DNA from: Smithella sp.
GTDB lineage: Bacteria > Desulfobacterota > Syntrophia > Syntrophales > Smithellaceae
DNA: 64,000 nucleotides
Direction: 5' to 3'
Assembly: GCA_049523355.1 (NCBI GenBank)
Contig: JBEKMY010000009.1
Span: 3,539 to 67,538, forward strand
A program made the position numbers and the translations under genes. How positions within the stretch are numbered: the first letter of the stretch is position 1; every line of letters begins with the position of its first letter. Under the pieces are notes generated by a model. It was given only the letters and a program-made list of their open reading frames with translations, searched no databases and was not told where the DNA came from. This document shows positions 2 to 35,771 of this stretch, one piece after another.

Positions 2-397
2 GCGACAGACGGAGATTATATCTCTTTGCAGATTTATTTAAGTACGTCTCAGGAAATTGACGCAGCCGTAAAACATTTGCGTGAAGTAATTCGCCAAAAG
101 CATAACCTGCCTGTGACGGTTGGCTATGGCCCGCGCTACCTGCATTCCACCGGCCAACTGCATAAGGGCGATTCCGGAAACGGTTTATTTATTCAATTCA
201 CACAGGACGACTCTGAGGATGTTGATATTCCCGATGATATCGGCAAGGAAGAGTCTTCTCTTACTTTCGGCGCACTCAAAGCCGCGCAGGCGAAGGGAGA
301 CTGGCAGGCGCTGATAGATAAAGGGCGCAGAATTATCCGTTTTCACTTTCAAGAAAATCCCGCCGCCGGGTTAAAAACTCTCGCCAAACTTCTTTAG
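2..397 (+). CDS. glucose-6-phosphate isomerase-type protein, C-terminal part (5' end outside window)
   Basis: Frame is open from the window edge (ATDGDYISLQIY...). Motif VGYGPRYLHSTGQLHKG resembles the C-terminal region of bacterial PGI / transaldolase-PGI enzymes. Confidence 0.5.
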   Translation, partial: ATDGDYISLQIYLSTSQEIDAAVKHLREVIRQKHNLPVTVGYGPRYLHSTGQLHKGDSGNGLFIQFTQDDSEDVDIPDDIGKEESSLTFGALKAAQAKGDWQALIDKGRRIIRFHFQENPAAGLKTLAKLL

Positions 398-445
398 CTT
401 TTCATTTTATACCAATTCTAAAGATTCGCATTCAAAATATTTATT

Positions 446-1120
446 TTATTCACTTTCCGTATTCTTCTTGATGAATGGTTTGATAATTTCAAAGAGAATT
501 ACGGTAATAAGTGTAATCAAAAGCAGAATCAGCAATGTAGTGATGAATTCTTTGTGTACCAGAAACATAATGATAAATATCTCCAGCATCAAGACCGCCG
601 TTTCGATAACCTTTTGACGTATTACTGTATCAATGAGAAATGAAAATATAATCACTTCAACCCAGCCTTCTACAATTATGCCGGAAATTATTTTTCCATC
701 CAGGAGTCCTGCAGGCAAAAATAAAATCATTAATTGAGCAAACCCAAAGGTGAAGAGTGATTCAGGAATATACGAAATGTTCACCGCCAGAAATGCCGGC
801 AGTCTGTTTCTGAGCAAGCCGCAGATAAAACCTGTCATGGCTTTGCCGAAGATTATCGCCAGACCGAAAAACGGTCCGTAAATTCCAAATACGGCGTAGT
901 GTATATAAGGATATATGGAACCGACGGCTCCTGCAATCATGCCGTAAAAAGGTCCAAAGGCTATAGCGGCAATAAAAGTGGCCAGGTGCGAGAAATCAAA
1001 AGATATCTGCGGGTGCATCGGAGTCAGGAGACTGGATAAAAAAGACAGCAGATTACCCAGCACACCCACGGCTATGGCAGCCAGCATTTTTTTCGTCTTG
1101 TCGCCTGGATTGAAAGTCAT
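446..1120 (-). CDS. multi-pass membrane protein of unknown function (possibly ECF-type substrate-capture component)
   Basis: 224-aa ORF, hydrophobic throughout with about 6 predicted helices. No recognisable catalytic motif. Confidence 0.4.
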   Translation of the reverse strand: MTFNPGDKTKKMLAAIAVGVLGNLLSFLSSLLTPMHPQISFDFSHLATFIAAIAFGPFYGMIAGAVGSIYPYIHYAVFGIYGPFFGLAIIFGKAMTGFICGLLRNRLPAFLAVNISYIPESLFTFGFAQLMILFLPAGLLDGKIISGIIVEGWVEVIIFSFLIDTVIRQKVIETAVLMLEIFIIMFLVHKEFITTLLILLLITLITVILFEIIKPFIKKNTESE

Positions 1121-1155
1121 GCAGCATCCTTTGTGAATCCTGTATTGACGTCAAC

Positions 1156-1728
1156 TTAACTAATTACCCTGAGAATTTGCGGATCATGCCGCTGGGGAGC
1201 CGCGGGAATTTCTTTCGGATAGCCGATAATAACAGGCGCGACGATCTGGCAGCCATCGGGGATTCCCAACAGGGCTTTTGTCTTGGGATCACGGATATAT
1301 GAACCCAATGCGATCCAGCAAGTTCCTAATCCCCTCGATGCCGCTGAAAACATGATGTAACTTACGGCCAGCGCGCAATCCAATTCCAGAGAATCAACCG
1401 CGGTAGAACCGATTACATAAATCAAACCGGGCGCGTTGTAAAACACATTAAAGTTTTTGTTTTTGAGCATATCGACATATCCGGGATTAAGTGCCGTTTT
1501 ATTTTTGGCAAAATCATCAAGAAGATTTTCTTTGCTTTCATCGGAGAGCGCTTTAATGGTATTTTTACAATTAACGATAGAAAACCGACAAGGTTGACCG
1601 TTGCTGGCTGAAGGCGCCAGACAAGATTCCTTGAGTATTTCTTTTATTATATCGAGTGGAACTTCTTTTTCCTGAAAATCACGGATTGCTCTTCTGTTTT
1701 TTAATAACTCTGCAAATGTCATCATCAT
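1156..1728 (-). CDS. nitroreductase family protein
   Basis: RRAIRDF...LAPSASNGQPCRF motif is typical of the FMN nitroreductase fold. Start moved to ATG 1728, 7 nt after a GGAGG. Confidence 0.8.
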   Translation of the reverse strand: MMMTFAELLKNRRAIRDFQEKEVPLDIIKEILKESCLAPSASNGQPCRFSIVNCKNTIKALSDESKENLLDDFAKNKTALNPGYVDMLKNKNFNVFYNAPGLIYVIGSTAVDSLELDCALAVSYIMFSAASRGLGTCWIALGSYIRDPKTKALLGIPDGCQIVAPVIIGYPKEIPAAPQRHDPQILRVIS

Positions 1729-1780
1729 AACGGTTCCTCCTTTTATTAATGATTTCATCTTGTAGATTATCTATCACTTA

Positions 1781-2410
1781 TCAGGGCAAAAAAACAGAGA
1801 TAATAGCTAAAATACCACGTTGAAACAAATCTATCACCGGATTAAGAAAACCTAAATACAACAACCCGATAACAATAAAAAATCCAAAAGGTTCAATTTG
1901 ATCAAGAACTTTTCTTATTGATTCCGGCGCGAAACCCATGAGAATTTTGGAACCATCAAGCGGAGGAATAGGAATTAAATTAAATGCGGCCAATATAATG
2001 TTAATCCGGGCCAGCAGAAAAAGAACTTGTTCAAGCATCCCTGAATGTTCAAGAGAAATCAGCCGTAATAATAATAGAGCGGTAAAAGCGCAAATAATAT
2101 TCGCTGTAATACCTGCTGCTGAAACGAGAATAAGCGCTTTGCGTCTTTTATCGCCGGGGATATTCCCCAGATTTATGGGAACAGGTTTTGCCCAGCCAAA
2201 ACCGATAATCAAAAGCATCAATGTCCCAATAACATCTAAATGTTTTATCGGATTGAGCGTCAATCGTCCCAGCCTTTGAGCTGTGGGATCCCCCATTTTA
2301 AAGGCAACCCAGCCGTGAGCTAATTCATGAAAGATGACTGAATATAACAGCAACACCGACAAAATTACAAAAGCCAGTGGATCTTTAATTAATAAATTTA
2401 TAAGTCCCAT
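1781..2410 (-). CDS. site-2 protease family (peptidase M50) membrane metalloprotease
   Basis: HELAHG (HExxH) in the first TM region, later LIPIPPLDGS motif, multi-TM. Confidence 0.8.
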   Translation of the reverse strand: MGLINLLIKDPLAFVILSVLLLYSVIFHELAHGWVAFKMGDPTAQRLGRLTLNPIKHLDVIGTLMLLIIGFGWAKPVPINLGNIPGDKRRKALILVSAAGITANIICAFTALLLLRLISLEHSGMLEQVLFLLARINIILAAFNLIPIPPLDGSKILMGFAPESIRKVLDQIEPFGFFIVIGLLYLGFLNPVIDLFQRGILAIISVFLP

Positions 2411-2703
2411 CGTAAAATCCTTTAAGTCAACTGAATATCACTAATATTTATCCATCATTTTCTTCTGTCTGCTTCTTACAGGATGTCCTGCTGTTGTCTT
2501 ACCTCTGTTCGTTTTACTTTCATCCGGATTTTCCGGCGTGACAGAAATTTTCTTGGGATTCTACTTCGCTTACAAGAAGCCCTTTATTCTGCCTCAGATT
2601 TTCTTCACACACCTATGCATTGGGTTTTTCCGTCAACAAAGATAGAGTTCTAACCTAAAACGCATTCCATTCATGAGAGCGCATAAAAAATATCATTACA
2701 TTG

Positions 2704-2738
2704 CAGAAAGTTTTCACCAACGTGGTGAAAACTTTCTG
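2704..2738 (-). terminator. perfect 16-bp stem / 3-nt loop hairpin downstream of the ABM gene
   Basis: cagaaagttttcacca-acg-tggtgaaaactttctg, 20 nt after the stop at 2758. The T-run on the minus strand is displaced by about 12 nt, so this is not a canonical intrinsic terminator. Confidence 0.45.
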
Positions 2739-2757
2739 TAGAATCCCAACAACATTA

Positions 2758-3042
2758 TCAGATAATCTCGTAACAGGTTTTGATATCCATGCCCGGCTCC
2801 AGCAGGGGTAAAAGACTTTCAATATTTTTCATCAAATTGGCGGAATGCAGTTTCAGGGCATCCTTATCGCTGTATTTCTCATAAAAAATAATTGTACTTT
2901 CATCGCCGCGGACAGTGTGTGGTATATACTCTATACATCCAGGCTCGCTGGCTTTAATTTTTGGAACGATCTCTTTGAGCGCGTTGATAGCGTCTTGTGT
3001 TTTTCCTTCTTTAATTTTTAAAGTCGCAATTAGTGTAATCAT
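2758..3042 (-). CDS. antibiotic-biosynthesis-monooxygenase (ABM/YgiN-like) domain protein
   Basis: About 94 aa with the pattern ...KEGK...F..A......SE.GC..Y......D......F.E.Y.D..A...H. Start ATG 3042 is preceded by AAGGAGG. Confidence 0.7.
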   Translation of the reverse strand: MITLIATLKIKEGKTQDAINALKEIVPKIKASEPGCIEYIPHTVRGDESTIIFYEKYSDKDALKLHSANLMKNIESLLPLLEPGMDIKTCYEII

Positions 3043-3294
3043 TATCTTGCCTCCTTTTGATTGAGAACTTCTTTTCTCAAGGAGGGAGTATATGAACAAG
3101 GCTCCTGTGTGTCAAAGGAATATTTATTTAAATACAGGTCGCAAAATATGCGGTACTCTGCGTGTGATCATGGAAAGCATGTATCTGTATCGGATTAAGA
3201 TTAAAAAAATATAAAAAAGAGGTCTATATTTTTCTTTGAAATATGGTAAACTTTTTAACAATAAGAAGGAAACAATTATATGTAGGGATATATT

Positions 3295-3630
3295 ATGATC
3301 GGCTACATGAAGAAGCATGAAAATTACGTAAAAGAGATGCTTGAACAAAAACTAAACGAAGAAGAATTAAGAAAGCTGCTGGCATATCACGATAAACAGA
3401 TTCTATGGATGCAACACGAAAGACTGGCGCATCTTATAGTTATGCTCTTTGTTTGTTTCTTTATGCTGCTTATTCTCGGCTTTACTGTTATACGGACATC
3501 CATGCCGTCTATTATTCTTTCCGTGATTTTCCTGATTTTATCGGTTGCTTACATTCTCCATTATTACCGTCTCGAAAACGGCGTACAAAAATGGTATTTG
3601 ATTTCAAATCAAATCAAGAAACAGCTTTAA
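3295..3630 (+). CDS. hypothetical small membrane protein
   Basis: 111-aa ORF with a charged N-terminus and two hydrophobic helices. No recognisable family. Confidence 0.4.
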   Translation: MIGYMKKHENYVKEMLEQKLNEEELRKLLAYHDKQILWMQHERLAHLIVMLFVCFFMLLILGFTVIRTSMPSIILSVIFLILSVAYILHYYRLENGVQKWYLISNQIKKQL

Positions 3631-3773
3631 TTACAATACTTGGCACAAAAGACGGTTATTAACCCACCCGCACGGGATTTTTTCTTGCCCCGCAGATATC
3701 ATTTCTAACAGTGAGCGTTGTTTTGTTGCTGCTATCGCAATACAGGAATTTGCTTTAATATGAGCATGAAATT

Positions 3774-3799
3774 ATTTCCCTGTTAATTAACAGGGAAAT
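3774..3799. terminator. perfect 26-bp palindrome between convergent genes (bidirectional terminator candidate)
   Basis: atttccctgttaa|ttaacagggaaat followed by a T-rich tract (aatttttatgtttatttttt). Confidence 0.5.
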
Positions 3800-3810
3800 A
3801 ATTTTTATGT

Positions 3811-4800
3811 TTATTTTTTAAATATATCCGTCACGCGTTCAATATCCGATCCGGCTTCCTTTACTATCCTTTCAATAAGATCTTTACACGTGGGAATATC
3901 CTTTACAAACCCGACTGATTGCCCCATCATCATGGGAGCGTTATCAACATTGCCGAATTCCCACGCTTCTTTTACTCTCTGTCCGGATATCAGCGGAATT
4001 AGTTGTTCCAAGCCCCCGCCTTTTGCCTCCACGGACAAAACTTCTTCAACAATCTTATTTTTTATCGCCCTGCCCTGCAAACCGATGGATTTACAGATAA
4101 GAGTTGTCTCATATTCCTGTCGCCGGATAAGTTCCTGTTTAATGTTATCGTGAACCTCACACTCTTGTGTAGCGACAAAACGGGTCGCCATCATAACTCC
4201 CTCGGCACCCAGAGCAAGCGCCGCCGCAAATGTACGGCCGTTGGAAACACCGCCAACAGTCACTACCGGAATCTTCACTGATTCCACAATTCGCGGAGTG
4301 AGCACCATTGTGGTTACATCATCATTAAGCGGATGACCGCCCTCTTCTATACCCGCGGCATAAATGCCGTCATAACCGGACTTCTCGGCATGCACGGCAT
4401 GACGCACCGATCCTACCTTGTGAAATAGTTTAACTCCCGCCTTCTTTAGAATATCTATGTATTCTTTTCCCACCGCCTTGTCCAGCGGCGTGCCGGATAT
4501 CTCCAGACCTGCAACCTTTTCCTCAGCGCAAACACGCAGGAACATTTTATGATGCTCGGCTGTAATATGCACTGACGGCAGAATAGTCACATTCACCATA
4601 AAGGGTTTATCGGTCAGTTTTCTTGTCAGCTCAATGGCCTCACGGAATTCTTCCTCTGTGGAATAATTTCCTGCGGTCAGGTTTCCCATACCGCCGGCGT
4701 TAGAGATAGCGGCGCAAAGCTTTGGCTTGCAAAGCCACATCATCGCGCCGCATATAATGGGATATTTTATTCCGAACATTTCTGTAATAGCTGTTTTCAT
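3811..4800 (-). CDS. nitronate monooxygenase / FabK-like FMN oxidoreductase (NMO family)
   Basis: N-terminus FGIKYPIICGAMMW...ISNAGGMG and overall TIM-barrel NMO pattern. Confidence 0.8.
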   Translation of the reverse strand: MKTAITEMFGIKYPIICGAMMWLCKPKLCAAISNAGGMGNLTAGNYSTEEEFREAIELTRKLTDKPFMVNVTILPSVHITAEHHKMFLRVCAEEKVAGLEISGTPLDKAVGKEYIDILKKAGVKLFHKVGSVRHAVHAEKSGYDGIYAAGIEEGGHPLNDDVTTMVLTPRIVESVKIPVVTVGGVSNGRTFAAALALGAEGVMMATRFVATQECEVHDNIKQELIRRQEYETTLICKSIGLQGRAIKNKIVEEVLSVEAKGGGLEQLIPLISGQRVKEAWEFGNVDNAPMMMGQSVGFVKDIPTCKDLIERIVKEAGSDIERVTDIFKK

Positions 4801-4853
4801 TTTTCTTTCACCTATATAATTTATTTTGTAATTATTGAATTTCGCAACACTAT

Positions 4854-5579
4854 TTAATCAGAGATTAACAGAGAATCAATTTTGGCTGACGACGGCATAT
4901 AGTCCGAATCCAGTACTTTAATAATGTCACTATGCAGCCTCTTTTTTAATTCACTGAAAATTCCCCGCTTCTTCTGGAAAGTTTTGGCAAAGGTTATAGC
5001 CGAGGCCATAAGATCTTCCTGATTGGTACAAGCTTTCACGATAATGTTATGTTTTTCCAGCTCAGGCGCGGTATAACGATTTCCGGAAAACTGCATCTGT
5101 GTGAATATGTGCAATGGAATTGCTTTCTTGACAAAAGCGTTCATGCCCCACCTGAAAGGAATGCCTATATTGACTTCTGGAAAGCAGAAGAAACCTTTGT
5201 CCGAGCGCATGAATCGAAAATCGCAGGCGCAGGATAATATCGAACCATTGCCGAAAGCATGGCCGTTGATCGCCGCAATGACCGGCACCGGATAAAGAAG
5301 TAGTTTTTTAAACACAATATCCATTTCGTTGATGAAATCAGTGACCGGCTGGTGATCATTTTTCTGCATCTGTCCCGTAATCCATACAACGTCTATGCCC
5401 TGAGAAAAATTCTTCTCGTCATTGGAAGTAATAATCAGGGACGATATTGATTTATCGGCAATTATTTCATCGAGCATGGCGTTTAAAGTTTTGGCAAAAA
5501 TAAGGTTTTGCCTGTTTTCACCATTGGTCATGGTAATAATCGCTACGTTTTCATCTTTGACCCAATTCATGATAGACAT
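4854..5579 (-). CDS. enoyl-CoA hydratase/isomerase (crotonase) family protein
   Basis: Crotonase pattern (...FSQGIDV..., AAINGHAFGNG..L..ACDFR). The start at MSIMNW (5579) is chosen over the ORF-track start and is tentative. Confidence 0.7.
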   Translation of the reverse strand: MSIMNWVKDENVAIITMTNGENRQNLIFAKTLNAMLDEIIADKSISSLIITSNDEKNFSQGIDVVWITGQMQKNDHQPVTDFINEMDIVFKKLLLYPVPVIAAINGHAFGNGSILSCACDFRFMRSDKGFFCFPEVNIGIPFRWGMNAFVKKAIPLHIFTQMQFSGNRYTAPELEKHNIIVKACTNQEDLMASAITFAKTFQKKRGIFSELKKRLHSDIIKVLDSDYMPSSAKIDSLLISD

Positions 5580-5894: not shown

Positions 5895-7346
5895 ATGGCG
5901 TTAAAAACGGCCCAACAATATGAGGAAAGCCTGCGTAAAATGAATTTAAAAGTTTATTTACTGGGTGAATTGGTGAAAAATCCGGTAGATAATCCGATAA
6001 TCAGACCATCCATGAATTCCGTAAAAATGACATACTCGTTAGCTCAAGATCCCCAATATGAAGATCTAATGACTGCAAAATCCCATCTGACGGGAGAAAA
6101 GATAAACCGTTTCTGTCATTTGCATCAAAGTACTGAAGACCTGATAAAGAAAGTCAAAATGCAGCGCTTGCTGGGACAAAAAACCGGTGCCTGTTTTCAA
6201 AGATGCGTCGGAATGGATGCCATAAATGCCGTAGACAGCGTAACTTTTGAGATGGATAAAAAACTTGGCACTAAATATCATGAACGGTTCGTCAAGTTTC
6301 TTAAAATGATCCAGAAAGAAGATCTTGTTGTTGACGGCGCTATGACCGATCCCAAAGGCGATCGAGGACTTTCTCCCGGTAAGCAGGAAGATCCGGACCT
6401 CTATACGCATGTTGTGGAAAAAAGAAAAGACGGCATTATCGTGCGCGGCGCCAAAGCGCATCAGACAGGCGCAATCAATTCGCACTGGATTTTAGTCATG
6501 CCGACAATTGCAATGTCCAAAGAAGACGCCGATTACGCGGTTTCTTTTGTCGCGCCTGCCGACGCGGAGGGTATTTCCTATATCTACGGTAGACAATCCT
6601 GCGACACGCGGAAACTGGAAGGCTGTGAAATAGATGTCGGCAACAGACAGTTCGGCGGCCATGAGGCATTGATGGTTTTTGACAATTTATTCGTTCCCTG
6701 GGAAAATGTGTTTATGTGCGGGGAATACGAATTCAGCGGAGCTCTGGTAGAACGTTTTGCCGGTTATCACCGTCAGAGTTATGGCGGCTGCAAAGTCGGC
6801 GTCGGCGACGTGCTTATCGGCGCGGCGGCTCTGGCCGCTGATTACAACGGCGCATCCAAAGCTTCCCACATAAAAGACAAACTGATTGAAATGATACATC
6901 TCAATGAAACGCTTTTCTCCTGCGGAATCGCCTGTTCGGCGCAGGGACATAAAACAGATTCCGGCACTTACCTGATTGATTTACTGCTGGCCAACGTCTG
7001 CAAGCAAAATGTTACAAGATTTCCTTATGAGATCGCCAGGCTGGCGGAAGATATTGCCGGAGGAGCAATGGTTACCATGGCCTCGGAAAAGGATTTGCGT
7101 CATCCGGAAATCGGCAAATTAGTCGAAAAATATTTTAAGGGAATTGCTTCGGTACCCACGGAGAACCGCTGCCGCATTTTAAGGTTGGTGGAAAATATTA
7201 CTCTGGGCACGGCAGCTGTCGGTTATCGCACGGAATCCATGCATGGCGCAGGTTCTCCGCAGGCTCAGCGAATTATGATTTCCCGTCAGGGGAATCTGGA
7301 ACAGAAGAAGAAACTGGCTAAAGAAATCGCCGGAATTAAAGATTAG
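5895..7346 (+). CDS. abfD: 4-hydroxybutyryl-CoA dehydratase / vinylacetyl-CoA isomerase (AbfD-type, HpaB superfamily)
   Basis: 483 aa. By my count Cys100, Cys104 (CFQRC), His292 and Cys299 (YHRQSYGGC) fall at or within 1 residue of the [4Fe-4S] ligands Cys99/Cys103/His292/Cys299 of the Clostridium aminobutyricum enzyme. Confidence 0.75.
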   Translation: MALKTAQQYEESLRKMNLKVYLLGELVKNPVDNPIIRPSMNSVKMTYSLAQDPQYEDLMTAKSHLTGEKINRFCHLHQSTEDLIKKVKMQRLLGQKTGACFQRCVGMDAINAVDSVTFEMDKKLGTKYHERFVKFLKMIQKEDLVVDGAMTDPKGDRGLSPGKQEDPDLYTHVVEKRKDGIIVRGAKAHQTGAINSHWILVMPTIAMSKEDADYAVSFVAPADAEGISYIYGRQSCDTRKLEGCEIDVGNRQFGGHEALMVFDNLFVPWENVFMCGEYEFSGALVERFAGYHRQSYGGCKVGVGDVLIGAAALAADYNGASKASHIKDKLIEMIHLNETLFSCGIACSAQGHKTDSGTYLIDLLLANVCKQNVTRFPYEIARLAEDIAGGAMVTMASEKDLRHPEIGKLVEKYFKGIASVPTENRCRILRLVENITLGTAAVGYRTESMHGAGSPQAQRIMISRQGNLEQKKKLAKEIAGIKD

Positions 7347-7397
7347 TTTTGTTAAAAACTATAAGGTCGACGCGGTGTATTATTTAATTATACCCAT

Positions 7398-30402: not shown

Positions 30403-32328
30403 ATGGGAAAAATTATTGGAATTGATTTAGGAACGACAAATTCGTGCGTAGCCATAATGGAAGGCGGAGATCCCGTTGTTATCGCCAATCAGGAAGGAAA
30501 CCGTACCACGCCATCAATTGTCGCCATTGCGGAGAACGGTGAGCGCCTTGTAGGTCAGGTTGCCAAAAGACAGGCGATTACCAATTCGGAAAATACTGTT
30601 TACGCCGTTAAAAGATTGATCGGCAGAAAATACAGTTCCAAGGAAATTCAGTACGACGTGAAGATAACCGCCTACAAGATTACTGAAGCATCCAATGGCG
30701 ATGCCCAGGTAACCGTTCGGGGGAAAAATTATTCTCCCGCTGAAATATCGGCTATGATTCTGACAAAAATGAAACAAACTGCCGAAGATTATCTGGGAGA
30801 AAAAGTGACGGACGCCGTCATTACCGTACCGGCCTATTTTAACGATTCACAGCGACAGGCGACCAAAGATGCCGGCAAGATTTCCGGTCTGAATGTTTTG
30901 CGTATTATAAATGAACCTACCGCAGCCGCTCTGGCTTACGGTCTTGACAAGAAGAAAGATGAAAAAATTGCCGTCTTTGACCTGGGCGGCGGAACTTTTG
31001 ATATTTCGATCCTGGAGCTGGGAGATGGCGTATTTGAAGTCAAATCCACCAATGGCGATACCCATCTGGGCGGGGAGGATTTCGATCAGCGCGTCATGGA
31101 TTATCTGGTTGCCGAATTCAAAAAAGATCAGGGCATAGACCTGCGCAGCGACAAGATGGCACTGCAACGATTGAAAGAAGCGGCGGAAAAAGCGAAAATG
31201 GAGCTCTCGACAACAATGGAAACAGATATCAATCTGCCTTTCGTTACCGCTGATGCCTCCGGCCCCAAGCATATGAACATCAAGCTGACACGTGCCAAAC
31301 TGGAATCTCTCGTTGAAGAGCTAATCAATAAAGTGGTCGGCCCGTGTCAGACAGCAATTAAAGATGCCAATTTATCAACGAAGGATATTGACGAAGTCAT
31401 TCTGGTTGGCGGTATGACGAGAATGCCGCGAGTGCAGCAAAAAGTGAAGGAAATTTTTGGCAGAGAACCGCACAAGGGCGTGAATCCGGACGAAGTAGTT
31501 GCAGTAGGCGCGGCTATTCAGGGCGGCGTTCTGGCGGGTGAGGTCAAAGATGTTCTGCTTCTGGATGTTACGCCTCTGTCTCTGGGTATTGAAACTTTGG
31601 GCGGCGTGATGACAAGGCTTATCGAAAAAAACACTACTATTCCCTGCAAGAAAAGCCAGATTTTCTCGACGGCGGCCGATAATCAGCCGGCGGTGAGCAT
31701 CCACGTTCTGCAGGGTGAACGTCAGATGGCACCTGATAACAGAACGCTGGGTCGTTTTGAACTGGTGGGCATTCCGCCCGCTCCGCGAGGCGTGCCACAG
31801 ATCGAAGTTTCTTTTGATATTGACGCCAACGGCATCGTGCACGTCAACGCCAAAGACCTGGGTACCGGTAAAGAACAAAGCATCAAAATTACCGCCTCCA
31901 GCGGCCTGTCTGAAGCGGAAATTGAAAAACTTGTCCGTGACGCGGAAGCGCACGCTGAAGAAGACAAGCGTCGCAAGGAACTCATCGAAACCAGAAATCA
32001 GGCCGATTCTCTGGTATATTCCGTTGAAAAGAATGTCAGGGAATTCGGCGACAAGGTAGATGCAGCTGAGAAAACAAAAATTGAAGAAGCAATAGCTAAA
32101 GCGAAAAAGGCTCTTGAAGGTGACGATATTGATGCCATCAAAAAGGCTCAGGATGATCTTATGAATGTTTCACATAAGCTGGCAGAAGCCATGTACGCCA
32201 AAACAGCAGGCAGTCAAGGCGGACCGGGGGCGGATGCCGGAGCGCAACAACAGGCAGGCAATCAACAACAGGCATCAGGCAAAAAAAATGACGATGTGGT
32301 TGATGCCGACTTTGAAGATGTAAAATAA
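30403..32328 (+). CDS. dnaK: molecular chaperone DnaK (Hsp70)
   Basis: [29 protein letters not shown] signatures. 641 aa. Confidence 0.98.
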
Positions 32329-32352: not shown

Positions 32353-32388
32353 TGCCCGGAATGGCGAAAGCTATTCCGGGCATTTTTA
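32353..32388 (+). terminator. rho-independent terminator of dnaK
   Basis: tgcccggaat-N10-attccgggca followed by TTTTT. The T-tract is the transposon target site. Confidence 0.85.
32381..32388. repeat. target-site duplication, left copy (CATTTTTA)
   Basis: Identical 8-mer at 35764-35771, immediately outside the two inverted repeats. Confidence 0.85.
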
Positions 32389-32412
32389 GGCAATTGTATA
32401 GTTCACAAACCC
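32389..32412 (+). repeat. left terminal inverted repeat (IRL)
   Basis: ggcaattgtatagttcacaaaccc versus the reverse complement of 35740-35763, ggcaattatatacttgacaaaccc. Confidence 0.85.
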
Positions 32413-32546
32413 AACTATTTATTGGAGGTAATAAAACTAGATGTATAAACACACTCGAAATTGCCCGATTTGTGGGTCACCGATTTATGAGACACAAATT
32501 TGGTCTGGCAAATGCGCACCAACTCCATATTACACTTGTTCATGTA

Positions 32547-33191
32547 TTACGTTTGTATATCCATATCAGCAGAGCGAGTATAGGCTTGAGCTGGTTGTAA
32601 TGTTATACCAAAAGGTGGCATCCCATGCGGTAGATGAGGCATTATTTCACCAATTACCGACAAGTCAGCATCAATTGGAAATAGAGCAGATTTGATTTCA
32701 TGAACAAGACCATAATCTTTGGCGTCGGTTGGATTGAGAGTAATACGATTGTTCATATCGTCTTCAAGTTTATGTAGAGGTTTACCAGTTGTATCGGAAA
32801 TGATTCGCGCAATGTTCGTTTGGTCAATTTTAACAGACCTTAAGTGTTCCTCAAGTTGCTTTTCATCGAATGAAGCACTTCCATTAAAATTAAAACGAAC
32901 GCCATGAATCAGGAAGCGTGCATGAGGAACAGAGCAACGATGTTTGCCTGCACAGAAAAGGATAACACCGATGGAATCAACGCTACCAAAGTTATAGGTA
33001 TCGACTTCAATGGGTGCCCCTTTGAGAAAATTGTAAATAGAGATACCATGAAAAACAGAGCCACCCGGAGACGACAACATGAGATGAATCTTCTCGCACT
33101 TTGCAGCAATCTTCTGATCGATTATTTTGAAAAGTTGATCAGCTGTCTGTGGTACAACGGAAGCCATTAAACGGATGTATGCTTCTTTCAT
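32547..33191 (-). CDS. ClpP-fold (peptidase S14-like) serine protease homolog, transposon cargo
   Basis: IHLMLSSPGG (cf. InSPGG), Ser in GSVDSIG, His in FLIHGV, Asp in EDDMNNRITL..DAKDYGLVHEI. AAGGAG lies 7 nt before the ATG. The last ~48 aa extend beyond the fold and overlap a plus-strand ORF. Confidence 0.7.
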   Translation of the reverse strand: MKEAYIRLMASVVPQTADQLFKIIDQKIAAKCEKIHLMLSSPGGSVFHGISIYNFLKGAPIEVDTYNFGSVDSIGVILFCAGKHRCSVPHARFLIHGVRFNFNGSASFDEKQLEEHLRSVKIDQTNIARIISDTTGKPLHKLEDDMNNRITLNPTDAKDYGLVHEIKSALFPIDADLSVIGEIMPHLPHGMPPFGITLQPAQAYTRSADMDIQT

Positions 33192-33220
33192 TGTGATGTC
33201 TCCTTTTGGGGAAGAAAAAT

Positions 33221-33367
33221 ATTATTTTATCATTTTATTTTTTTTATTTTCAATTGGCGGTACAGATAAAATCTTTTTCATTATAGAATCAAAATCATCC
33301 GCTGAGATTTTTTTTACATCCTCTTTTTCAATAACTGTTTTTTTTGTTCTACCCTTTTTATTTTCAT
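33221..33367 (-). CDS. 48-aa lysine-rich peptide, translationally coupled to the PIN gene (not in ORF track)
   Basis: MKIKRVEQKKTVIEKEDVKKISADDFDSIMKKILSVPPIENKKNKMIK. Its ATG overlaps the PIN stop as ATGA (33364-33367). Confidence 0.45.
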
Positions 33368-33873
33368 AACGCATTAGATTGCTCCGAATCAAACAAAGGC
33401 CCTATGGGTATTGACGGTAAACATATTTTAAGCTTCTGTCCATCCTTTCGTTCTACTTTTTTATCTAAAGAGATTAAGTGATCTGTATCGAATGTGTGAA
33501 GCTCATCAACATTATAAATTGCAGCAGTGGCAAGATGAATTGCATCTTGTGGAACCTTAAGACCGTCTAATCTCCGAAGAAGCCTTCTAGCGTAAGTCCC
33601 TATTTCTCTAGTAACTTGAACTAATATCACAAACGGTTGACCCAAAAAATCTTCAAATATTTTATCTTTTTCTTCTGGAAGTTGTTTTGCCGCATTCTCA
33701 CACCGCAATTTAAACACTTCTGCCAATGTAAAAGTTGAGGTTAGAATTTCAACTTCTTTATTCTGAGCCAACTCAAAAAAATAGCGCAATGGTTTTAGCC
33801 TATCTTCGTTTTCTTCATTAATCAATTCTATCCAATTACATGAATCCCAATATACTCTTTTTATTTTAGTCAA
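33364..33873 (-). CDS. PIN-domain nuclease (VapC-like), transposon cargo
   Basis: Acidic residues in the expected order (YWDSC, TLAEV, QDAIHLATA, HTFDTD). The preferred TTG start at 33873 overlaps the upstream stop by 8 nt. The alternative ATG at 33948 would overlap by 83 nt. Confidence 0.7.
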   Translation of the reverse strand: MTKIKRVYWDSCNWIELINEENEDRLKPLRYFFELAQNKEVEILTSTFTLAEVFKLRCENAAKQLPEEKDKIFEDFLGQPFVILVQVTREIGTYARRLLRRLDGLKVPQDAIHLATAAIYNVDELHTFDTDHLISLDKKVERKDGQKLKICLPSIPIGPLFDSEQSNAL

Positions 33874-34720
33874 GATTGCCCTCACGAAGTTTTTTGAGAT
33901 ATTCAGAAGGACTAATGCCTTGGGTAAAACCACTATCACGAATTGCATCTATAGAAACATCTCTGGACACAATATGCTCTATTTGAGCATCAATAATTCT
34001 ACTAATTTTACCGGTTTTTTCATAAGAAACCATTCCACTAACAATTACCCTTATGTGTTCCCAAACATCGTTGAGGTGCATAGATTCAGATACGTTATTT
34101 CTAATTTCTTCTGGAACTCGACACCATATCTCATCTTGAGTTAACCTATCACGGATACGAAGCGCAGGATGATCATAATCCGAGCCAGCAGCAACTAAGT
34201 ATCCATCAATAGAGCCAAGTTCTTTATGGGATAAATCTTCCGAAAAAAGACGAGCTGGCTGTTTATGTATTTCGCTCATTGCAGAATCAGCTATTTGAGG
34301 AGTAATCTCAATGGGAACCGAGTCTATTTCAGTGTCCAAGATAATACGTGTTTTGCCGATTCCATTATTACTTCTTTTAAGAATTCTCTCGATAATTTTA
34401 CTGGCATGAGCAGAAGTCCATTCGTCAGGAGTGATACCTTTTAATATGGACTTAGTACCATATCTTAGTTTTTCTTTTTGTTTTTTAGCAAGCTCGTCAA
34501 TGTTTACGCTAGAATCAAAGCTAAAAGCTTCAGCGGTCACTGTAAAAGGACTTTTCATACTGACCGAAACAAGTTTCCAAATGATGTTTTGCGAATCTTG
34601 TTTCTCATCTATCGAGACGAGTTGAAAGTAATCTAGAACTTGCTCCATAGCATCCTGAAGAGTTAAAAAGTCAGGATGAGATTCTGGAGGTTCAATGACT
34701 ATCTGTATTTTTTCGGCCAT
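33866..34720 (-). CDS. 284-aa protein of unknown family, first cargo gene after the transposase
   Basis: Long ORF co-oriented with and 50 nt downstream of the transposase. No motif I can assign. C-terminal tail SPSEYLKKLREGNLD immediately precedes the PIN gene. Confidence 0.6.
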   Translation of the reverse strand: MAEKIQIVIEPPESHPDFLTLQDAMEQVLDYFQLVSIDEKQDSQNIIWKLVSVSMKSPFTVTAEAFSFDSSVNIDELAKKQKEKLRYGTKSILKGITPDEWTSAHASKIIERILKRSNNGIGKTRIILDTEIDSVPIEITPQIADSAMSEIHKQPARLFSEDLSHKELGSIDGYLVAAGSDYDHPALRIRDRLTQDEIWCRVPEEIRNNVSESMHLNDVWEHIRVIVSGMVSYEKTGKISRIIDAQIEHIVSRDVSIDAIRDSGFTQGISPSEYLKKLREGNLD

Positions 34721-34770
34721 GGTAATTTTCTGCGCCAGTACAAAAGCGCCTCCTTTTTTATGTTGCTTGT

Positions 34771-35700
34771 TTATTCCATTGATGAGTCCCGATATATAAG
34801 TCTTTTCCCTTCAATGCCACGAAGAGCCAATATACTTCGTTCATCGTCATCAATTTTTCTTTCGTTATATCTGAAATTAAACTCGGATAAATATCTGTGA
34901 AGATGTTGTTCGCCGACATGATGATATACTCCAGTAATGCCGCGTTTCAAAATACTGAAATAATTTTCAACCGTGTTTGTGTGGACATCGTTTCTGACGT
35001 ATTCACCTTTACCATGATTCACGACAGAGTGAAAGAAATTTTTATTTAATCCATTGTAAGACTTAAAATCATCTGTCATTATTTTAGCGGATTTCTTAAC
35101 ATTTTCACGAATTATATTTTTAAGATTTACGCCTGTAACTCTTTGAACCGGCATCGACTTTACGTTTCCGTCTCTTTCAACTAAAGCGAATACTGGAATC
35201 TTGCCAACACCCCCACGCCCAGCGCGTAATTTCTTATTGTTGTGTTTATTTTTTTCTTTTCCGCCAATGTAAGTTTCGTCAACCTCAACTATACCGCCCA
35301 ATTTTCCTTTTTTATCGTCCAGAGCGTAACGGATACGATGATTCATAAACCAAGCTGTTTTATAGGTAACTTTCAGCATTCTATGAAGCTGATGAGAACT
35401 CATTCCCTTTTTGGAAGAACAAATCAGGAAGGTGGCAAGAAGCCATTTATTGAGCGGAACATGACTATCTGCAAAAACTGTCCCGACTGTTACAGAAAAT
35501 TGTTTCCGGCAACTCTTACACTTCCACACACCCTCACGTACAGGCTTTTTGGAATCTTCCTTGCCTTGTATTGGATAGTGCTTTTCAGTACTGCCACAAT
35601 GAGGGCAAACCGCGCCATTAGGCCATCTTACACTTTCTAAGTATTGTCTGGCTTTATTTTTATCTGTGAAGTATGGTGTATCAAATCCTATGTTTTCCAT
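34771..35700 (-). CDS. IS1595-family transposase (N-terminal zinc ribbon + ISXO2-like DDE domain)
   Basis: CPHCGS...CKSCRKQFSVTVGTVF, VEVDETYIGG, IMTDDFKSY, HTNTVENYFSILKR motifs. 309 aa with no frameshifts. Confidence 0.85.
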   Translation of the reverse strand: MENIGFDTPYFTDKNKARQYLESVRWPNGAVCPHCGSTEKHYPIQGKEDSKKPVREGVWKCKSCRKQFSVTVGTVFADSHVPLNKWLLATFLICSSKKGMSSHQLHRMLKVTYKTAWFMNHRIRYALDDKKGKLGGIVEVDETYIGGKEKNKHNNKKLRAGRGGVGKIPVFALVERDGNVKSMPVQRVTGVNLKNIIRENVKKSAKIMTDDFKSYNGLNKNFFHSVVNHGKGEYVRNDVHTNTVENYFSILKRGITGVYHHVGEQHLHRYLSEFNFRYNERKIDDDERSILALRGIEGKRLIYRDSSME

Positions 35701-35721
35701 AATGTTCCTCCATTTGATTTT

Positions 35722-35750
35722 AATATAACAACTTCAAATGGGTTTGTCAA
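35722..35750 (-). promoter_or_regulatory. inward-facing sigma70-like promoter partly inside IRR
   Basis: On the minus strand: TTGACA (35750-35745), 17 nt, TATATT (35727-35722), then GGAGG 7 nt before the transposase ATG. Confidence 0.6.
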
Positions 35751-35763
35751 GTATATAATTGCC
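35740..35763 (-). repeat. right terminal inverted repeat (IRR)
   Basis: See IRL. 21/24 match. Confidence 0.85.
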
Positions 35764-35771
35764 CATTTTTA
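35764..35771. repeat. target-site duplication, right copy (CATTTTTA)
   Basis: Identical to 32381-32388. Confidence 0.85.

Follow-up and report, generated by a model that had tools for sequence, protein, structure and literature searches.

An IS1595-family transposon of Smithella carrying a putative VapC-like addiction module and a ClpP-like gene as accessory cargo

Do a PIN-domain nuclease and a ClpP-fold protein that are encoded side by side on a mobile element belong to one system, or do they share only a vehicle? The question is raised by a locus in a 64,000-nucleotide (nt) stretch of DNA from Smithella sp. (GenBank assembly GCA_049523355.1, contig JBEKMY010000009.1, positions 3,539–67,538 of the forward strand; hereafter the window), in which four tightly packed open reading frames (ORFs) encode an acidic protein of 284 amino acids (aa), a PIN nuclease, a small Lys-rich protein and a ClpP-like protein. 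An initial annotation made from the sequence alone had placed these ORFs downstream of a transposase gene and in its direction, as their coordinates bear out, and had proposed a four-gene unit in which a PIN toxin is hard-wired to its own ClpP-like protease. Our analysis points to a different division of the locus: the first three genes probably constitute a VapC-like addiction module borne by a transposon, with the ClpP-like gene as an accessory piece of cargo rather than a dedicated partner of the toxin.

Including the transposase gene, five co-directional ORFs lie on the minus strand within a complete 3,375-bp IS1595-family transposon with passenger genes (32389–35763). Its parts and borders are the following.

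32381–32388: target-site duplication, left copy (CATTTTTA), by direct reading; overlaps the terminator hairpin of dnaK at its T-tract
32389–32413: terminal inverted repeat far from the transposase (GGCAATTGTATAGTTCACAAACCCA), 25 nt, by repeat search
32547–33191, minus strand: ClpP-like protein, 214 aa, an N-terminally truncated paralogue (PF00574, E 1.2e-27)
33222–33374, minus strand: small basic Lys-rich protein, 50 aa, isoelectric point (pI) about 10 (9.9), with the motif DDFDSIMKKILSVPP and then a Lys-rich tail
33364–33873, minus strand: PIN-domain nuclease, VapC-like, 169 aa from a TTG start (PF01850; D10, E52, D110, D129)
33866–34720, minus strand: acidic 284-aa protein of an unannotated family, pI 5.1, in antitoxin position
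34771–35700, minus strand: IS1595-family DDE transposase, 309 aa, with an N-terminal zinc ribbon (Pfam, NCBIfam)
35739–35763: terminal inverted repeat at the transposase end (GGCAATTATATACTTGACAAACCCA, read on the minus strand), 25 nt, by repeat search
35764–35771: target-site duplication, right copy (CATTTTTA), an identical 8-mer by direct reading

The two 25-nt repeats are 88% complementary and enclose all five genes, and the inverted-repeat pattern has exactly two matches in the 64-kb window compared with none expected by chance. Since the same 8-mer, CATTTTTA, stands directly outside both repeats, we read it as a target-site duplication, of the 8-bp length that is usual for IS1595-family elements. 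The transposase matches the family's DDE domain (PF12762, DDE_Tnp_IS1595, E 3.6e-43), its zinc ribbon (PF12760, E 2.3e-16) and the NCBIfam model NF033547 (E 3.6e-66; 223 bits, cut-off 75). The element thereby shows both characteristics of the family: a DDE transposase with a zinc ribbon, and inverted repeats (~25 nt, as in other members) with an 8-bp duplication. Siguier et al. 2009 reportedly described passenger genes in some IS1595 subgroups. Neither the repeats nor the duplication that bound this set of genes had been part of the initial annotation.

Gene neighbourhoods separate the four cargo genes. A 284-family gene with a PIN gene after it occurs in ~17 distinct contexts from several phyla, without exception where the sequence continues downstream. 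Among the sources are Smithella, Syntrophaceae, Methylobacterium, Ramlibacter, Hyphomicrobiales, Betaproteobacteria, Bradyrhizobium, a 9.4-Mb genome, and cyanobacterial and Nanopelagicales metagenome-assembled genomes (MAGs). The overlap between the two genes is 8 nt in the window; 15 other loci show overlaps of 4, 8 or 17 nt, and a reverse search from the PIN homologues yielded three further long contigs with the same upstream 284-family partner each time. An IS1595 transposase or a remnant of one lies directly upstream in about half of the contexts.

The ClpP-like gene stands beside the pair in a single one of these ~17 loci, that of the window. At ~30 loci with close relatives of the ClpP-like gene, there was no 284-aa, PIN, small-ORF or transposase neighbour, and when the flanking ORFs of the ClpP-like loci were clustered no neighbour of any kind recurred. 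One apparent second co-occurrence, a ClpP gene near the 284-aa/PIN pair of locus L029, was rejected because it belongs to a housekeeping tig-clpP operon (PF00574, E 1e-86). As a separate observation, near-identical 284-aa/PIN loci (L033–L038) are found in MAGs assigned to Cyanobium/Synechococcaceae and to Nanopelagicales (Actinobacteria), a pattern that either a very recent transfer or cross-contamination during binning would produce.

Comparison with sister elements resolves the transposon into a constant part (transposase, 284-aa, PIN and small genes) and an exchangeable position before the far repeat, which in the window corresponds to the following interval.

32424–33254, minus strand: variable cargo slot, without a counterpart in sister element L001 and holding other genes in other sister elements

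In L001, from another Smithella MAG, the transposase is 92% identical to that of the window and the same repeats recur (1172–1196 and 4619–4643), flanked by a different 8-mer duplication, TAATTTAT. DNA homology between the two elements extends from the transposase-side repeat through the 284-aa gene, the PIN gene and most of the small ORF, ends at ~33255 and returns at 32423, just inside the far repeat; between these points L001 has two unrelated ORFs (148 aa and 110 aa) instead of the ClpP-like gene. The more distant L078, in a GC-rich genome, is bounded by 33-nt repeats that share the core GGCAATGTTATACTTGACGTACCC and by the duplication AAAACTTT, and contains a transposase (48% identity), a 284-family gene, a PIN gene, a 54-aa basic ORF and a 522-aa N6_N4 methylase/Mrr_cat fusion. 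In Methylobacterium (L026), 22-nt repeats surround only a transposase, a 288-aa gene, a PIN gene and a 75-aa ORF. Finally, L004–L009, L025 and L022 have a decayed transposase remnant, the 284-aa/PIN pair and a small ORF, followed by a SocA_Panacea antitoxin gene and a ~140-aa gene, past which L004 retains a degenerate far repeat. Copies of the element thus differ in what lies between the small gene and the far repeat, a slot whose contents are exchanged.

Two of these loci deserve separate mention. The slot gene of L078 (4741–6309) fuses an N6_N4 DNA methylase to Mrr_cat/NA-iREase1 nuclease domains in 522 aa, which judging by these domains would be a single-polypeptide restriction-modification-like gene on an insertion sequence. 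Upstream of the decayed element in L004–L009 (~280–5400) lie a 937-aa unannotated gene, a cNMP-binding CAP12/PCTIR TIR protein, a 231-aa gene and PLD-domain fragments, a gene set that looks like a defence island.

The ClpP-like protein has the fold that the initial annotation assigned to it (PF00574, 97.5 bits, cut-off 20.2) and matches 106 ClpP chains in the PDB at E ≤ 1e-3, the closest being PpClpP1 of Pseudomonas plecoglossicida (9UXT, E 2e-20). Against the NCBIfam ClpP models it scores 63–77 bits, far under the equivalog-level cut-offs of 228–359, and its identity to canonical ClpPs is 28–30%. The Ser and His proposed earlier for its catalytic triad, Ser73 in VDSIG and His96 in LIHG, are invariant, and S98 and H123 are their aligned counterparts in Staphylococcus aureus ClpP. 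The Asp proposed with them, in EDDMNN, does not complete the triad: this residue, D145, is invariant but lies four residues upstream of the canonical position, at which a near-invariant Arg149 aligns with the catalytic Asp172 of S. aureus ClpP, and the canonical Ser-His-Asp triad is absent. The N-terminus of the protein aligns near residue 25 of S. aureus ClpP, which leaves it without an N-terminal axial-loop docking region. At its other end is a conserved extension of ~45 aa that canonical ClpP lacks (residues ~168–214; 32547–32690), composed of the motif LFPxDADLSVIGE, a variable stretch and (Y/F)TRSxDLDxxT.

PpClpP1 is likewise an N-truncated paralogue; it has a Ser73-His96-Pro triad, a dilated pore and weak peptidase activity, does not bind ClpX, for the docking of which the missing N-terminal region is required, and is activated through mixed tetradecamers with canonical ClpP (PMC12900304). 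The ClpP-like protein resembles it in its N-terminal truncation, in having Ser73 and His96 at the same positions and in a third residue other than Asp. It differs in that this residue is Arg149 rather than Pro, in the extra ~45-aa extension and in being carried by a transposon, with a family that is solitary across bacterial and archaeal metagenomes; the match between the two is distant. The missing N-terminal region argues against a self-sufficient, substrate-specific protease. By analogy with PpClpP1, the protein would most likely form an open-pored tetradecamer of low activity or mix with host ClpP.

The ClpP-like family counts more than 2,000 relatives (E ≤ 1e-10), which include many at 65–86% identity and come from Spirochaetota, Methanoregula and other groups. 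The ClpP-like gene would be independent cargo that moves alone through many contexts, perhaps modulating the Clp proteolysis of its host and affecting the PIN module, if at all, only incidentally. Such a poorly understood, horizontally spread, N-truncated paralogue merits study apart from that module. A plasmid collection held no close relative of it (every match below 60% identity), and nor did 50,697 phage records (all below 60%, about 27–33% among the matches listed).

These searches bear on whether the 284-aa protein and the ClpP-fold protein could be a scaffold and a prohead protease left over from phage head morphogenesis, an alternative that the initial annotation had itself raised. The ClpP-like protein does match the head-maturation-protease family phrog_94 of PHROGs (E 1e-22) and, under the cut-off, the NCBIfam model Clp_rel_HeadMat (E 8e-14). 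Models of cellular ClpP score higher, however, and the solved structure closest to it is that of a cellular ClpP paralogue. PHROGs returned nothing for the 284-aa protein, and the ORFs of the window show no portal, capsid or terminase gene nearby, the neighbours being the transposase, the PIN gene, dnaK and a putative solute-binding protein gene. Given this neighbourhood and the boundaries of the element, we regard the phage origin as effectively refuted and leave it next to no probability.

Two minor ORFs adjoin ClpP-like genes. At L016 and L017 (3618–3989 and 897–1268), a 123-aa protein with a faint M48/SprT-like match (E about 0.06–0.09) is encoded just upstream of the ClpP-like gene, an arrangement not seen at the other ClpP-like loci. 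In the window, a Cys-rich 84-aa ORF on the plus strand (32441–32695; MYKHTRNCPICGSP...) covers the 3′ end of the ClpP-like gene in antisense; it is unsupported by homologues and is probably spurious.

Could all four genes nevertheless form one addiction or abortive-infection system, in which a dedicated ClpP-fold protease frees the PIN nuclease by degrading the large antitoxin or sensor? They are co-directional and tightly spaced, with a ribosome-binding site (RBS) and a spacer of 30 nt (not 29, as first given) between the small ORF and the ATG of the ClpP-like gene; they share one transposon and possibly one promoter; and the Ser and His of the protease are conserved. Despite this we find the proposal very improbable. 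The ClpP-like gene is absent from the other ~16 distinct 284-aa/PIN loci, and the ~30 loci of its own relatives have no PIN or 284-aa gene. Unrelated genes fill the same slot in sister elements, with DNA homology breaking exactly around the ClpP cassette, and the protein has neither the docking region nor the canonical Asp; PpClpP1, the nearest solved protein, has weak peptidase activity and depends on a canonical ClpP. The families of the proposed unit thus do not co-occur elsewhere, an outcome that the initial annotation had itself named as refuting its proposal, and the neighbourhoods of the ~17 pair loci and the ~30 ClpP-like loci yielded no dedicated functional link between the ClpP-like protein and the PIN module. 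The locus illustrates that a functional unit should not be deduced from tight packing in a mobile element.

What, then, do the remaining genes encode? The PIN protein matches PF01850 above the gathering cut-off (E 1.4e-8, 35.8 bits; cut-off 23.6), and the acidic residues expected of its active site, D10, E52, D110 and D129, do not vary among 12 diverse homologues (39–68% identity), as the initial annotation anticipated. The TTG start at 33873, also given there, shares 8 nt with the end of the 284-aa gene, stop codon included; both the TTG and the overlap are kept in six of the six homologues checked. One of its 249 homologues carries the NCBI name of a VapC-family toxin, and a sequence search of the PDB gave no match at E ≤ 1. 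In Methylobacterium sp. W2 (L028), a second PIN-like match with 28% identity to the PIN protein of the window lies ~600 nt downstream of the first (6998–7396).

The upstream partner could not be placed in any family when first annotated, and our searches agree: Pfam, NCBIfam, PADLOC and PHROGs gave no family match for the 284-aa protein and a profile search of the PDB was also empty, with Pfam returning for it and 46 relatives no match save a marginal one to DUF6488 in one relative (E 0.0045). Its family is nonetheless sizeable, comprising 16 close homologues and, by profile search at E ≤ 1e-3, 594 representatives clustered at 50% identity, nearly all of them ~280 aa long. An AlphaFold2 model (predicted local distance difference test score 81 at first and 90.8 with 47 sequences) has an alpha/beta domain (~1–160), a five-stranded barrel of the OB fold with an inserted helix (~165–250) and a terminal helix (271–280), which is of lower confidence and less confidently packed than the domains. 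The most conserved linear motif of the protein is C-terminal, FTxGxSxxEYLxKLREG.

A Foldseek comparison of this model with the PDB, of the kind proposed in the initial annotation, returned only OB folds (the anticodon-binding type of LysRS and AspRS, Teb1 and OBodies; best E 4e-4), all of them weak matches. Among viral models, three uncharacterised phage proteins matched over the whole length (E 8e-10 to 2e-8), and the OB folds of SSB and LEF-3 were found as well. The OB part is computed to be acidic, like the whole protein, and a protein-binding or mimic role thus fits at least as well as nucleic-acid binding.

The small ORF that follows starts at ATG 33374, overlaps the PIN gene by 11 nt and stops at 33222. 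The initial annotation was right about the existence of a Lys-rich ORF after the PIN gene and misplaced its start: the ATG at 33367, in an ATGA overlap, opens only 17 codons rather than 48, and the 50-aa frame is that from 33374. A motif, F-(D/E)-x-h-h-K-(K/R)-h-h-x-x-P-P, with a Lys/Pro-rich tail recurs after the PIN gene in the window, L001, L004, L023 and L078, and less clearly in L010, L026 and L028. AT-rich genomes and GC-rich ones alike have it, which speaks for a real protein, and the pattern identifies this ORF as the predicted third conserved gene of the core.

In the reading that we favour, the PIN protein would be the RNase toxin of a VapBC-like addiction module. The acidic 284-aa protein, whose gene is in the antitoxin position and is paired with this PIN clade at each locus with downstream sequence, would neutralise it, probably via the conserved C-terminal helix. 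The ~50-aa basic peptide may act as an accessory or regulatory third component, and the three genes are translationally coupled. Carried by a transposon, such a module would make it costly to lose the element or its carrier replicon and so stabilise them. The earlier suggestion of a transposon-stabilising module is therefore reasonable for the 284-aa/PIN part, and falls for a four-gene unit.

This arrangement resembles VapBC systems in several respects. The PIN protein has four invariant acidic residues and a homologue named for the VapC family, and its partner is acidic, has a conserved C-terminal helix and is encoded immediately upstream in the same orientation with an overlap of 4–17 nt. 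It departs from them in the size of the partner (284 aa versus about 70–100 aa), in the alpha/beta domain and OB fold predicted for it, and in the third small basic gene after the toxin gene; neither Pfam nor the model gave the partner an AbrB, RHH, HTH or Phd domain such as small VapB antitoxins have. The toxin-antitoxin system PasABC has three components, including a small third protein, and there too a small third gene directly follows the toxin gene.

Several points weigh against our interpretation. The 284-aa protein is 3–4 times bigger than known VapB antitoxins and without their DNA-binding domains, and could instead be a sensor or a substrate adaptor; the OB-fold matches of its model in the PDB are weak (E about 4e-4; over the whole query the TM score is about 0.23). 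A transposase is missing from about half of the loci of the pair, which makes the linkage to IS1595 frequent rather than obligatory. As for the ClpP-like gene, many of the metagenomic contigs that carry its relatives are short (1–3 kb), limiting the view of their neighbourhoods, and in the element of the window it follows the core after a 30-nt spacer with an RBS, such that co-expression and some interplay may occur here.

Toxin-antitoxin pairs, including ones with PIN toxins, are integral cargo of Tn3-family transposons, in which they recur inside the ends beside a transposition gene and have been proposed to stabilise the transposon (Lima-Mendez et al. 2020, PMC7157771). The element of the window differs from these in belonging to IS1595, small DDE insertion sequences that lack a resolvase, in carrying the module downstream of the transposase gene and co-directional with it, in having a new family in the antitoxin position and in the adjacent exchangeable cargo slot. 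The kinds of system that stand behind the core, VapBC-like toxin-antitoxin systems and transposons that bear toxin-antitoxin genes, are known, and what is new is the partner family, the third peptide and the link to IS1595 with its exchanging slot. Text searches of the literature, which did not cover ISfinder, found no description of this three-gene IS1595 cargo or of a variable distal slot, and no paper that ties ClpP-like proteins to anti-phage defence or OB-fold antitoxins to PIN proteins.

If the favoured reading is correct, VapC-like toxins would have a new partner family, built unlike any known VapB antitoxin and accompanied by a conserved third peptide, and toxin-antitoxin modules as integral parts of transposons, documented for Tn3, would extend to small IS1595-type elements. 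A variable slot with conflict-type genes inside an insertion sequence would also offer a simple route for the spread of such genes. A broader form of the idea, which we advance only tentatively and think somewhat doubtful, is that a widespread IS1595 lineage with an obligate stabilising trio and a slot that shuffles conflict genes (Panacea pairs, a methylase-Mrr fusion, a truncated ClpP paralogue) acts as a miniature defence and addiction shuttle, and that the 284-aa family is a new class of large antitoxins or sensors for VapC-like toxins.

Conflict genes are often the neighbours of the core or the contents of its slot, and for this reason a role of the core itself in defence by abortive infection is a live alternative. 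The trio would then be mainly anti-phage, with the OB-fold protein sensing a phage nucleic acid or protein and releasing the PIN nuclease, and the transposon would be its vehicle. In L004–L009 the trio lies beside the cNMP-binding TIR gene (CAP12-type), PLD genes and a Panacea toxin-antitoxin pair; the slot gathers defence-type genes, among them the methylase-Mrr fusion and Panacea pairs; and the partner is larger than usual and its OB fold is like those of phage SSB, LEF-3 and the three uncharacterised phage proteins. We nevertheless judge this alternative unlikely. PADLOC-DB v2, whose catalogues extend up to 2023, has no model that matches the 284-aa, PIN, small or ClpP-like protein at E ≤ 1; the acidity of the OB region (pI 5.1) is unusual in a nucleic-acid binder; and many of the loci lie outside recognisable defence islands. 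Moreover, abortive infection overlaps with the addiction module that we favour rather than excluding it.

There is little chance that the 284-aa and PIN proteins are instead accessory transposition factors of the IS1595 lineage, serving for example in end processing or target choice. Such a role would explain why about half of the loci, among them distant clades such as Methylobacterium (38% identity) and L078, have a transposase or remnant immediately upstream, and would suit the nuclease fold of the PIN protein and the frequent binding of nucleic acids by OB folds. The pair is, however, intact and retains invariant catalytic residues at many transposase-free loci, is kept also beside decayed transposase remnants, and belongs to an element of a family that normally needs a transposase only.

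Expression of the addiction module that we favour may start at the transposase end of the element. Two sites resemble promoters by consensus.

35722–35750, minus strand: promoter-like site, TTGACA, 17-nt spacer, TATATT with TG; 11/12, consensus match only
33224–33253, minus strand: promoter-like site, TTGAAA, 18-nt spacer, TAAAAT, upstream TG; 10/12, consensus match only

The first, a strong site and the best promoter-like match of the region, lies partly within the transposase-side repeat and reads into the transposase gene and the cargo. The second, just upstream of the ClpP-like gene at the junction of the cargo slot, is a weak candidate.

Outside the repeats, the transposon is inserted on the T-tract of the terminator hairpin (32353–32382) of dnaK (30403–32328, plus strand). 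The GC content of the element is 0.33–0.39 (32800–35400) compared with 0.43–0.52 in the flanking dnaK region, an AT-richness consistent with foreign origin. The element of L001 (L001 1–1196) adjoins a trigger-factor gene, and the unlinked 284-aa/PIN pair of L029 (2987–5218) lies just upstream of tig-clpP. Three insertions near chaperone and protease housekeeping operons may reflect chance, or a preference for the AT-rich terminators of highly expressed genes.

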